DNA of 64,000 nucleotides from Escherichia coli (GTDB lineage Bacteria; Pseudomonadota; Gammaproteobacteria; Enterobacterales; Enterobacteriaceae): the NCBI RefSeq assembly GCF_030384885.1, contig NZ_CP128613.1; one strand, written 5' to 3'. The notes below the pieces were generated by a model that did not search any database, was not told where the DNA came from, and saw only the letters and a program-made list of their open reading frames with translations. The translations under genes and the position numbers were made by a program. This document shows positions 1,150 through 16,517 of the stretch, piece after piece; the stretch's first letter is position 1; each line of letters opens with the position of its first letter.

Positions 1150-1725
1150 ATGACGCAACAAATCACCCTCATTAAAGACAAAATTCTCTCCGATAACTAT
1201 TTCACCCTGCACAACATTACTTACGATCTCACGCGAAAAGATGGCGAAGTTATCCGCCATAAACGTGAAGTTTATGATCGTGGTAATGGTGCGACGATCC
1301 TCCTGTACAACGCGAAGAAAAAGACCGTCGTTCTGATTCGTCAGTTCCGCGTCGCTACCTGGGTTAATGGCAATGACAGCGGGCAGCTGATTGAAACCTG
1401 CGCCGGGCTGCTGGATAACGACGAACCGGAAGTGTGTATTCGCAAAGAAGCGATTGAAGAGACGGGGTATGAAGTTGGCGAAGTGCGCAAATTATTTGAA
1501 CTGTATATGTCGCCAGGCGGTGTGACTGAGCTAATCCACTTTTTTATCGCCGAATACAGTGACAGCCAGCGCGCTAATGCGGGCGGTGGTGTCGAAGATG
1601 AAGATATTGAAGTGCTCGAGCTGCCGTTCAGCCAGGCGCTGGAGATGATCAAAAGCGGCGAAATACGTGACGGTAAGACGGTGTTATTGCTTAACTATTT
1701 GCAAACATCACATTTAATGGACTGA
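1150..1725 (+). CDS. nudK: GDP-mannose pyrophosphatase (Nudix hydrolase)
   Basis: ORF 1123-1725 in track; start placed at ATG 1150 ([11 protein letters not shown]); Nudix-box-like region; synteny. Confidence 0.8.
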
Positions 1726-1850
1726 AAAATAACAATAATATTTCGTTGTTTATTATTGGCTCAATCCGATAAATCCGATTGAGCCGCGCTACCTGCGCAA
1801 CGAAGATACGACTTGTGCTGTTTGTTTGAACTTCTGGGGTCGTACCGTCC

Positions 1851-2894
1851 ATGCGCTATCGCATTTTCCTTCTCTTTTTTTTCGCTTTGTTGCCGACGTC
1901 TTTGGTGTGGGCGGCACCAGCGCAACGGGCATTTTCCGACTGGCAGGTCACCTGTAATAATCAAAATTTCTGTGTGGCGCGCAATACGGGCAATCATAAT
2001 GGACTGGTGATGACCCTGAGCCGCAGCGCCGGGGCGCATACCGATGCCGTTTTACGTATTGAGCGCGGCGGGTTGAAGTCGCCGGATGCGTCGGAAGGGG
2101 AGATAGCGCCACGGCTGCTGTTAGATGGCGAGCCGTTGGCGTTGAGTGGTAACACGTGGCGGATTTCACCATGGTTATTAGTAACCGATGATACGACAAC
2201 CATCACCGCGTTTTTGCAGATGATTCAGGAAGGGAAAGCGATCACCTTACGCGACGGCGATCAGACCATTTCACTGAGTGGCTTAAAAGCAGCGTTGTTG
2301 TTTATTGATGCCCAGCAAAAGCGCCTCGGCAGTGAAACTGCGTGGATCAAGAAAGGGGACGAACCGCCGCTCAGTGTACCGCCAGCGCCTGCGCTAAAAG
2401 AGGTCGCGGTAGTGAACCCGACGCCGACCCCACTTTCTCGTGAAGAACGTAACGATTTGCTGGATTACGGTAACTGGCGGATGAATGGTCTGCGCTGTTC
2501 GCTTGATCCGTTGCGTCGTGAAGTGAGCGTTACGGCGCTGACCGACGATAAAGCATTAATGATGATTAGCTGTGAAGCAGGCGCGTATAACACCATTGAT
2601 CTTGCGTGGATTGTGTCGCGTAAAAAGCCACTGGCTTCGCGCCCGGTACGGTTGCGTTTGCCGTTCAACAACGGTCAGGAGACCAATGAACTGGAACTGA
2701 TGAACGCAACATTCGATGAAAAATCGCGTGAACTGGTGACCTTAGCAAAAGGGCGCGGATTAAGCGATTGTGGCATTCAGGCGCGCTGGCGCTTTGACGG
2801 TCAGCGTTTTCGCCTGGTGCGTTACGCCGCAGAACCCACCTGTGATAACTGGCATGGGCCAGACGCCTGGCCCACGTTGTGGATCACCCGTTAA
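1851..2894 (+). CDS. ypfG: DUF1176 exported protein YpfG
   Basis: 347-aa ORF with N-terminal signal peptide; synteny between nudK and tktB. Confidence 0.75.
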   Translation: MRYRIFLLFFFALLPTSLVWAAPAQRAFSDWQVTCNNQNFCVARNTGNHNGLVMTLSRSAGAHTDAVLRIERGGLKSPDASEGEIAPRLLLDGEPLALSGNTWRISPWLLVTDDTTTITAFLQMIQEGKAITLRDGDQTISLSGLKAALLFIDAQQKRLGSETAWIKKGDEPPLSVPPAPALKEVAVVNPTPTPLSREERNDLLDYGNWRMNGLRCSLDPLRREVSVTALTDDKALMMISCEAGAYNTIDLAWIVSRKKPLASRPVRLRLPFNNGQETNELELMNATFDEKSRELVTLAKGRGLSDCGIQARWRFDGQRFRLVRYAAEPTCDNWHGPDAWPTLWITR

Positions 2895-2919
2895 ACATAA
2901 TAGCGGGAACATGTCAGCC

Positions 2920-2958
2920 TGATAAGACGCGTCAGGCCGGATAAGACGCGTCAGCGTC
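2920..2958. repeat. REP-type palindromic element(s) between ypfG and tktB
   Basis: gcctgataagacgcgtcaggc / ggataagacgcgtc...gcatccggc imperfect palindromes typical of enterobacterial REP. Confidence 0.6.
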
Positions 2959-3014
2959 GCATCCGGCAATCAGCATCCGGCAATCAGCATCCGGCAATCA
3001 GCATCCGGCAATCA
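2959..3014. repeat. Perfect 14-bp tandem repeat (gcatccggcaatca) x4, plus partial fifth unit
   Basis: Read directly: four identical adjacent 14-mers 2959-3014, ending 3 bp before the tktB stop codon. Confidence 0.9.
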
Positions 3015-3017
3015 CCA

Positions 3018-5021
3018 TCAGGCACCTTTCACTCCCAGTACCTTATGCGCTTTTGCCACAATATTCTCGGCGGTAAAGCCAAAGAACGGGAACAGCTTAT
3101 CCGCAGGAGCAGATTCCCCATAACCCGTCATCCCGACAATTGCCCCTTTCAGACCAACATATTTGTACCAGTAATCGGCGATGCCTGCTTCCACCGCCAC
3201 GCGAGCCGCAACGTTAGAAGGCAACACCGACTCACGATATTCCTCATCCTGGGCGTCGAAAATATCGGTCGAGGGCAGGGAAACAACGCGTACATTGCGA
3301 CCTTCTCCCGCTAATTTCTCTGCCGCTTGCAGGGTGATTTCCATCTCTGAACCAGTGGCAATCAAAATAATATCCGGCTTGCCGCCGCTGTCTTTCAACA
3401 CATAACCACCGCGGGCAATCTCTTTTACCTGATCTGGCGTACGTTCCACCTGGGCCAGATTCTGCCTTGAGAGGATAAGCGCCGTCGGCCCGTTGTGACG
3501 CTCGACCGCCAGCTTCCAGCCCACCGCAGCTTCCACCTGATCACACGGTCGCCAGGTGCTAAAATTCGGCGTCAGGCGCAGACTGGCCAGTTGCTCAACG
3601 GCCTGGTGCGTCGGACCATCTTCCCCTAAGCCAATAGAGTCGTGGGTATAAACCATAATCTGCCGCGCTTTCATCAGTGCCGCCATCCGCGCGGCGTTAC
3701 GGGCGTATTCAACAAACATCAGGAACGTCGCGGTATACGGCACGAAGCCGCCGTGGTGCGCAATGCCATTGGCGATAGCGGTCATACCAAATTCACGCAC
3801 CCCGTAGTGAATATAGTTGCCCGCCGGATCTTCCTTCAGCGACACAGAACCTTTCCAGATGGTGAGGTTGCTGGGAGCCAGATCCGCCGAACCGCCGAGC
3901 AACTCAGGCAGCATGGGCCCGTAAGCGTTAAGCGTATTTTGCGAAGCCTTACGGGTCGCGATTTTCGCCGGATTCGCCTGCAACTCATTGATATATTTCT
4001 GCGTCGTTTTTTCCCAGTCTTTTGGTAAACCACCGCTCATCCGGCGAGTAAACTCTTCTGCCAGTTGCGGATGAGCCTTTTTATACGCGGCAAACTTCTC
4101 ATTCCAGCTCTGCTGTGCTTTTTCGCCTTTTTCGCGAGCGTCCCAGGCGTGATAAATCTCTTTGGGGATCTCAAATGGCGGATGATGCCAGCCCAGTTTC
4201 TGTCGAGCCAGCGCCACCTCTTCTTCACCCAGCGGTGCGCCGTGCGCCTCTTCTTTACCTGCTTTATTCGGTGAACCAAAGCCAATCACCGTACGGCAGA
4301 TAATCAGCGATGGCTTATCTTTTACGCTTTGCGCTTCAAGAATCGCTTCCTTCACCGCCTGCGGATCGTGACCGTCGATTTCATGGATCACATGCCAGTG
4401 ATAGGCTTCAAAACGTTTTGCCGTATCGTCGGTAAACCAGCCTTCGGTTTCACCGTCGATGGAAATACCATTGTGATCGTAAAAACCAATCAGCTTGCCC
4501 AGCCCCAGCGTGCCCGCCAGCGAACAGACTTCGTGAGAAATACCTTCCATCAGGCAGCCGTCACCCATAAACACATAGGTGAAGTGATCGACAATTTCAT
4601 GATCCGGCTGGTTAAACTGCGCCGCCAGTGTACGTTCTGCTATCGCCAGTCCGACCGCGTTCGCCAAACCTTGTCCAAGTGGACCGGTGGTGGTTTCAAC
4701 ACCAGGCGTATAGCCAATCTCCGGGTGACCAGGGGTTTTCGAATGCAACTGACGGAAGTTCTTCAGCTCTTCCAGCGGCAGGTCGTAACCGGTCAGATGA
4801 AGCAAACTGTAGAGCAGCATCGACGCGTGACCGTTGGAGAGAATAAAGCGGTCGCGATCATACCAGGTTGGATCGGTGGGGTTATGTTTAAGAAAATCGT
4901 TCCACAGCACTTCGGCAATATCAGCCATGCCCATCGGCGCGCCGGGATGACCAGAATTGGCTTTTTGTACCGCATCCATACTGAGCGCGCGAATCGCATT
5001 GGCAAGGTCTTTTCGGGACAT
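3018..5021 (-). CDS. tktB: Transketolase 2
   Basis: ORF 3018-5084 in track; start placed at [18 protein letters not shown] (ATG 5021); transketolase TPP-binding motifs; talA-tktB pairing. Confidence 0.9.
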
Positions 5022-16331: not shown

Positions 16332-16333
16332 AT

Positions 16334-16517
<184 letters not shown>

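Follow-up and report, generated by a model that had tools for sequence, protein, structure and literature searches.

A 14-bp tandem repeat carrying a REP arm tip varies in copy number beside the tktB stop codon of Escherichia coli

The array, its flanking genes and the REP hairpin

The window analysed here is a 64-kb stretch of E. coli DNA in which a short, perfect tandem array lies between ypfG, on the plus strand, and tktB, on the minus strand, a convergent arrangement that had been described from the letters and agrees with the annotation. Gene annotation was taken from RefSeq record NZ_CP027579.1 (strain 2013C-4282), which is 100% identical to the window. The window crosses the start of this circular record at about position 27499/27500, a point that is biologically meaningless and relevant to coordinate mapping: window position 2650 is record position 5,005,195 of 5,030,044, and window position 30000 is record position 2,501. 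The features of the locus are as follows.

1851 to 2894, plus strand: ypfG (DUF1176 protein) coding sequence, from the open-reading frame list and RefSeq annotation
2913 to 2954, plus strand: other REP arm, in tandem; 19-bp unit GTCAGGCCGGATAAGACGC, 2.3 copies, from Tandem Repeats Finder
2936 to 2967, plus strand: REP hairpin from an inverted-repeat search, with arms GCCGGATAAGACGC and GCGTCGCATCCGGC of 14 nt each
2959 to 3014, plus strand: array of four perfect copies of GCATCCGGCAATCA, from direct reading, Tandem Repeats Finder and the exact-match count
3015 to 3024, plus strand: degenerate fifth copy CCATCAGGCA, matching 8 of 10 unit positions
3018 to 3020, minus strand: tktB stop codon, TCA on the plus strand and TGA on the minus strand
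3018 to 5021, minus strand: tktB (transketolase 2) coding sequence, from RefSeq annotation and the open-reading frame list

Direct reading of the window gives four copies of the unit without a single mismatch, and Tandem Repeats Finder reports 2959-3024 at period 14 (4.7 copies, 96% matches, score 118), so that the four identical copies and partial fifth first noticed here are borne out. Exact matches to the unit number four in the whole window, all at this array, where 0.09 were expected, none of 100 dinucleotide shuffles reached four copies, and within the window only this array has two arm tips 12 nt or less apart. The ypfG stop lies 64 nt upstream of the array. At the other end the tktB 3' untranslated region begins with the array; the earlier note had it abutting the tktB stop codon, which is true of the degenerate fifth copy, as this holds both the stop and the last sense codon, but the perfect copies end 3 nt short of the stop, the gap being CCA at 3015-3017. 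The minus-strand translation ends ...KVLGVKGA*W*, with a second in-frame TGA one codon past the stop; on the tktB-sense strand this second TGA opens the first repeat unit. A coding potential of the array was considered and rejected, as TGA occurs in every frame within three units. A search of the region for intrinsic-terminator-like sites found none. One sigma-70-like match was seen on the minus strand at 2925 to 2897 (TTATCA, 17-nt spacer, TATTAT; 9/12), in the REP tail region and directed toward ypfG antisense; with 0.5 expected, this single match is no more than chance would give.

The unit is made of the last 9 nt of a REP arm followed by a 5-nt linker, AATCA, and the first copy of the array is itself part of the REP hairpin. 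The arms of this hairpin (2936-2949 and 2954-2967) are 86% complementary with two stem mismatches around the loop GTCA, and as RNA, folded alone, the hairpin reaches -22.1 kcal/mol. The Rfam family naRNA4, which was derived from the REP325 element (PMC4550694), matches at 2935-2995 (E=3.6e-5) with a score of 39.2 bits, its gathering score being 59.5, and we read this sub-threshold match as an independent sign of REP homology and nothing more. Along the plus strand the layout is the 5' arm in 2.3 copies, the loop, then the 3' arm tip with its linker in 4.7 copies; what had been called a REP cluster is instead one REP hairpin with both arms separately amplified. The 19-bp unit is TGTAGGCCGGATAAGACGC in most strains, the REP motif GTAG included, and allele comparison gives it 1, 2, 2.3 or 3.3 copies across strains. 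In the K-12 haplotype each of the two 19-bp units holds a GTAG; the window haplotype reads GTCAG, with no GTAG on either strand in 2895-3024.

In most strains, then, the locus is a REP, and in the window strain it is a REP whose GTAG is mutated. Among the marks of a REP, the window haplotype has the palindrome with its stem mismatches and the extragenic, dispersed occurrence, arm motifs being present at other intergenic sites of the window, and lacks the 5' foot GTAG. The likeness to the Z2-type REPs of E. coli lies in the imperfect palindrome with 14-nt arms, two stem mismatches and a 4-nt loop, in the extragenic position between convergent genes and in the GTAG foot of most strains; the difference is that only a 9-nt arm tip and a 5-nt linker are repeated here, and not the palindrome. 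No REP feature is listed in the ypfG-tktB intergenic region of the K-12 reference record.

Copy number across E. coli

Of 5,426 complete E. coli genomes, 5,425 gave a match to a 701-nt query over the locus, with matched spans of different lengths. We counted alleles using N units plus a unique tktB anchor as the query, the aligned query start giving the copy number, and split the classes by an 80% coverage threshold with tktB-side anchors of 60-99 nt, on a base of 5,418 genomes with the locus. The copy number of the 14-bp unit runs from 1 to 7 in these genomes, which bears out the suggestion that it might vary between strains. Frequencies of the classes with two units or fewer (1-copy, 2-copy, B2-type and boxC-type) were estimated from a systematic 60-record sample.

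At least 3 units: 229 of 5,418 genomes (4.2%)
At least 4 units: 106 of 5,418 genomes
At least 5 units: 71 of 5,418 genomes, re-verified with a cleaner threshold
Exactly 3 units: 123 of 5,418 genomes
Exactly 4 units, the window allele: 35 of 5,418 genomes (0.65%)
Exactly 5 units: 65 of 5,418 genomes
6 units: 5 of 5,418 genomes
7 units: 1 of 5,418 genomes, strain 8GC
2 perfect units, the mode: 35 of 60 sampled records (58%), including K-12, BL21, O157:H7 and O26
B2-type: 12 of 60 sampled records (20%)
boxC-type single unit: 9 of 60 sampled records (15%)
3, 4 and at least 5 units: one record each of the 60, with one shorter match unclassified

Individual alleles illustrate the range.

W5-6: 5 units
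Z1323HEC0399: 3 units
K-12 MC4100 and Ecol_224: 2 units
E200139: 2 units, with a single 19-bp unit
AHS8C65RI: one perfect and one diverged unit, in a class that includes ST131
Z226-7: a single unit beside the tktB stop, with an element that is presumably boxC-like in place of the REP core

In the AHS8C65RI allele the tktB-proximal unit has diverged to GCATCTGCCGGTCA and is followed by GTATCA instead of CCATCA; such divergence should block slippage, and the aligned array length did not differ among 12 sampled members of this type. The Z226-7 allele has its REP core and 19-bp units replaced by the element, which carries CCCCTCGCCCCTCTGGGGAGAGGGTTAGGGTGAGGGG, and keeps one G-type unit. Structures as different as these (B2-type or boxC-type) make up about 35% of the sampled genomes.

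These counts bear directly on the two outcomes that the earlier note had set against its own claim, namely that the four copies are an assembly artefact or that they are a fixed REP variant identical in all strains. The window's exact haplotype is found in one genome of the collection (query at >=99%), which leaves its count with no second assembly. Nothing else was found in favour of either outcome. Against both stand the length of the array, at 56 bp shorter than any sequencing read, the 34 further independent assemblies (35 in all) with four copies on at least four sampled haplotypes, the window's included, and the 3-7 copies that differ between strains across the 229 genomes. Repeat assemblies of the same strains also agree, 2018-01-1CC and 2018-11-3CC each having two assemblies, both with 5 units. 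We therefore regard either explanation as extremely improbable, and at the species level the artefact and the fixed variant are excluded by differing counts on identical flanking haplotypes.

Those haplotypes come from a flank comparison of 13 genomes with 2-7 units, covering 1,100 nt toward ypfG and 1,400 nt toward tktB. K-12 and BL21 (2 units each), KL53 (4 units) and RM9088 (5 units) show 0 SNPs in the 2,500 nt of flanks, and the remainder of their intergenic region is identical too. W5-6 (5 units) and 8GC (7 units) likewise have 0 SNPs between them, and the 6-unit CP53 and HS30-1 differ from these two by 1 SNP. Conversely, four different haplotypes (KL53, VTB97420v, EC42405 and the window) carry 4-unit alleles, and at least two, 41 SNPs apart, carry 3-unit alleles. 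Since different counts occur on flanks with 0-1 SNPs, the change of copy number is recurrent, and it repeatedly outpaces point substitution in the surrounding 2.5 kb; the number of independent events drawn from this haplotype comparison is a lower bound only.

Within lineages the picture is calmer. Five units are kept by 65 genomes, nearly all the listed ones of which share one sequence pattern at the tktB end, and the locus is only moderately unstable and is stably inherited within lineages. The counts for 3 to 7 copies (123, 35, 65, 5 and 1) do not follow a smooth stepwise decay because one lineage inflates the 5-copy class. The suspicion that the array is prone to slippage is supported by the recurrent change, with the refinement that the instability is moderate.

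The window strain, 2013C-4282, is an outlier. It is about 3-5% divergent from all other genomes, both at the tktB locus and 27 kb away, and at both loci (window positions 1400-4600 and 30000-31200) its own record alone matches at >=99%, the other 5,425 genomes being 95-99% identical. Its TktB and the K-12 protein are identical and share one WP accession, although 1,400 nt of tktB hold 73 differences, all of which must therefore be synonymous. EC42405 is its nearest relative at the tktB locus. The strain may belong to a cryptic Escherichia clade, and the same architecture in so divergent a genome suggests that the ypfG-tktB repeat locus is old. Six human isolates (Z0117EC0005, 2020CK-00188, E200086, E400634, E500002 and E600003), found by a 40-nt anchor with the window SNPs (1,183 genomes seeded), have 3 units and a tktB 3' end nearly identical to that of the window, and may represent a third background for the expanded array.

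Origin of the array and change of unit number

The array behaves as a variable-number tandem repeat (VNTR): its units run head to tail without spacers, their number varies between strains, and the number changes recurrently and independently of haplotype. We consider it likely that the array is a REP-derived minisatellite resized by replication slippage, where the slippage itself is what we infer from this pattern. A Z2-type REP lies between ypfG and tktB, and the 9-nt tip of its tktB-side arm has been duplicated head to tail together with the 5-nt linker. In the proposed course of events, the first misalignment probably used an older imperfect repeat at the tktB stop, GCATCCGGC[A/G]ATCA followed by CCATCAGGCA; this imperfect 1.7-copy repeat of unit and CCATCAGGCA is seen beside the stop even where the REP core is missing (Z226-7). 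Once at least two perfect units were in place, slipped-strand mispairing would gain or lose whole 14-bp units, and pausing of the polymerase at the neighbouring REP hairpin may promote it. Polymerase stalling sites that depend on BIMEs have been described in vitro, and the number of tandem BIMEs differs between strains (PMC3333891). An A-to-G variant of the unit, GCATCCGGCGATCA, is confined to the tktB-proximal unit and all added units are A-type, so the expansion must have taken place among the perfect distal units, in keeping with misalignment inside the perfect stretch.

The other candidate agent is the REP transposase (RAYT, TnpA-REP), which would have built and resized the array by cleaving single-stranded DNA at C|T near a REP and rejoining the strands. 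Such cleavage and rejoining has been proposed for the amplification of tandem BIMEs, for which strand transfer in vitro and strain-variable tandem numbers are reported; the sites are type I TGCC|TGAT, type II GGCC|TACA and, minimally, C|T in linkers (PMC3333891). On the tktB-sense strand each unit junction reads GGATGC|TGATTGCC, a C|T followed by TGAT, so that the junctions GC|TGAT resemble a REP-transposase cleavage site, and the region of the tktB stop, GTGCC|TGATGG, fits the type I site. The strand is the wrong one, however: TnpA-REP binding needs a 5' GTAG REP on the same single strand, intact and with no mutation of GTAG tolerated (PMC3333891), but CT is absent from the whole 14-bp array on the GTAG-bearing plus strand, and the minus strand, with CT at the junctions, carries only the inverted REP, which TnpA-REP does not bind. 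GTAG is moreover missing from both strands of the window haplotype, which reads GTCAG and has four copies all the same; where only one unit is present, its borders are not C|T sites; and the unit is a 14-bp fragment of a REP and not a REP/iREP pair. The two features that mark RAYT-driven BIMEs, a REP plus inverted REP in each unit and a C|T on the strand of the GTAG REP, are thus both missing from the 14-bp array, and we think it quite unlikely that this enzyme built it. The 19-bp repeat is a different matter. In the K-12 haplotype its junction does place a C|T on the REP strand, where it reads GC|TGTAG, and the other strand reads CCGGCC|TACA, the type II site; by its sequence this junction is a plausible REP-transposase cleavage site in the K-12 haplotype.

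The array stands apart from the tandem BIMEs (Ton-Hoang et al. 2012, PMC3333891), which it resembles in being an intergenic, REP-based tandem of strain-variable count; the BIME unit is about 100 bp, with two inverted REPs and linkers and RAYT as its proposed agent, whereas the array unit is 14 bp and holds no complete REP. An ordinary BIME tandem is present in the same window at 16333-16517 (period 100, 1.9 copies, 92% matches). With VNTR/MLVA loci the array shares short perfect units, discrete alleles and a count that changes recurrently on one haplotype and is passed on within lineages, but it is less variable than the usual typing loci, about 58% of genomes sharing 2 copies. The contingency loci of phase variation likewise change tandem copy number beside a gene; here the array follows the stop codon and lies in neither promoter nor reading frame, its unit length has no link to frame, no on/off logic applies and it is far less unstable. 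Finally, the short direct repeats recall a CRISPR array, a reading that had been dismissed from the start for want of spacers, and rightly, as the units abut (spacing 0) and no cas genes are nearby.

The array is a real and well-behaved polymorphism, an ordinary variable repeat of the slippage type that would not surprise a specialist. It adds a previously unlisted marker with seven length alleles, readable from any assembly or from a 200-bp PCR product, which is possibly useful for typing and tells apart sub-lineages with identical sequence in the surrounding 2.5 kb. It also indicates that REP fragments, and not only whole BIMEs, can seed minisatellites, and that one REP can have each of its arms amplified separately, giving a variable 3' untranslated region common to two convergent genes. 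For annotators, such arrays can be taken for CRISPR-like repeats or assembly errors.

Possible effects on tktB RNA, and related sequences elsewhere

With each unit, the 3' untranslated region of the tktB mRNA would gain a further copy of the REP 5' arm, and the distance from the tktB stop to the strong REP hairpin would grow by 14 nt. We folded the RNA from the stop codon onward, leaving out the coding sequence, since translating ribosomes would remove pairings with it; when it was included, the coding region paired with the stop-proximal region. In the predicted folds the innermost REP hairpin forms with a probability of about 1 for two or more units and starts 8, 22, 36 and 50 nt after the UGA with 1, 2, 3 and 4 units. 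The first copy of the REP arm thus lies 8 nt after the UGA, and the complete strong hairpin of the 4-copy allele lies at 50 nt. A second tier is predicted, in which the next arm copy pairs with the second 19-bp unit. For the stop-proximal arm, pairing is predicted with a probability of 0.88-1.0 at 1-2 units and of about 0.5-0.6 at four or more, the 4-copy allele having about 0.6.

As PMC12306157 reports Liang et al. (2015), REPs reduce translation of the upstream gene only when less than 16 nt from its stop codon; REPs between convergent genes have been proposed as bidirectional terminators or decay blocks (bioRxiv 10.64898/2026.03.23.713779). By analogy, the REP itself most likely acts as a bidirectional decay block or terminator, and additional units are probably neutral or close to it. 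A copy number selected as an expression dial for tktB, the added units moving the hairpin beyond the range of <16 nt, would accord with the start of the first arm inside that range, with the stepwise retreat of the strong hairpin and with the looser stop-proximal pairing at higher copy number. This reading is drawn purely from in silico folds, however, and the minimum-energy structures retain some pairing near the stop at all copy numbers; alleles of three or more copies are rare (the 4.2% above), no association with host, pathotype or phenotype was seen, and the quite different intergenic structures in about 35% of the sampled genomes speak against tight constraint. We judge such a dial unlikely. 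Somewhat less likely still is its fuller form, a heritable rheostat in the 3' untranslated region, in which slippage of 14-nt decoy REP arms would shift the hairpin into and out of a 15-nt zone and so tune TktB. Were it true, it would act through ribosome stalling and tmRNA tagging and through talA-tktB mRNA stability, leaving promoter and coding sequence untouched, and would be a natural case of copy-number-encoded post-transcriptional tuning by a REP fragment; any effect of copy number on TktB output would link REP biology, RNA structure near the stop and repeat instability.

In the literature searched we found no publication that names the locus or the unit, nor one that names tktB and ypfG together. 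The only match there to the unit sequence was a different REP listed as a questionable CRISPR (PMC11434687), a source that also records REPs sometimes being miscalled in this way by automated tools. Species-representative genomes were scanned with the pattern GCATCCGGC N{1,12} repeated three times, which self-overlaps at period 7; no enterobacterial REP-arm array, and so no outgroup, was found among the matches listed. Most of the listed matches belong to a heptamer microsatellite, (GCATCCG)n, with no relation to the array, or to further repeats in distant taxa. Among these matches perfect (GCATCCG)n occurs in many unrelated bacterial assemblies, and in the Acidobacteriota MAG CSMAG_2587 it lies at or near the ends of at least 14 contigs, a position that points to a dispersed repeat at which assemblies break, or to a terminal structure, in either case unrelated to the tktB array.
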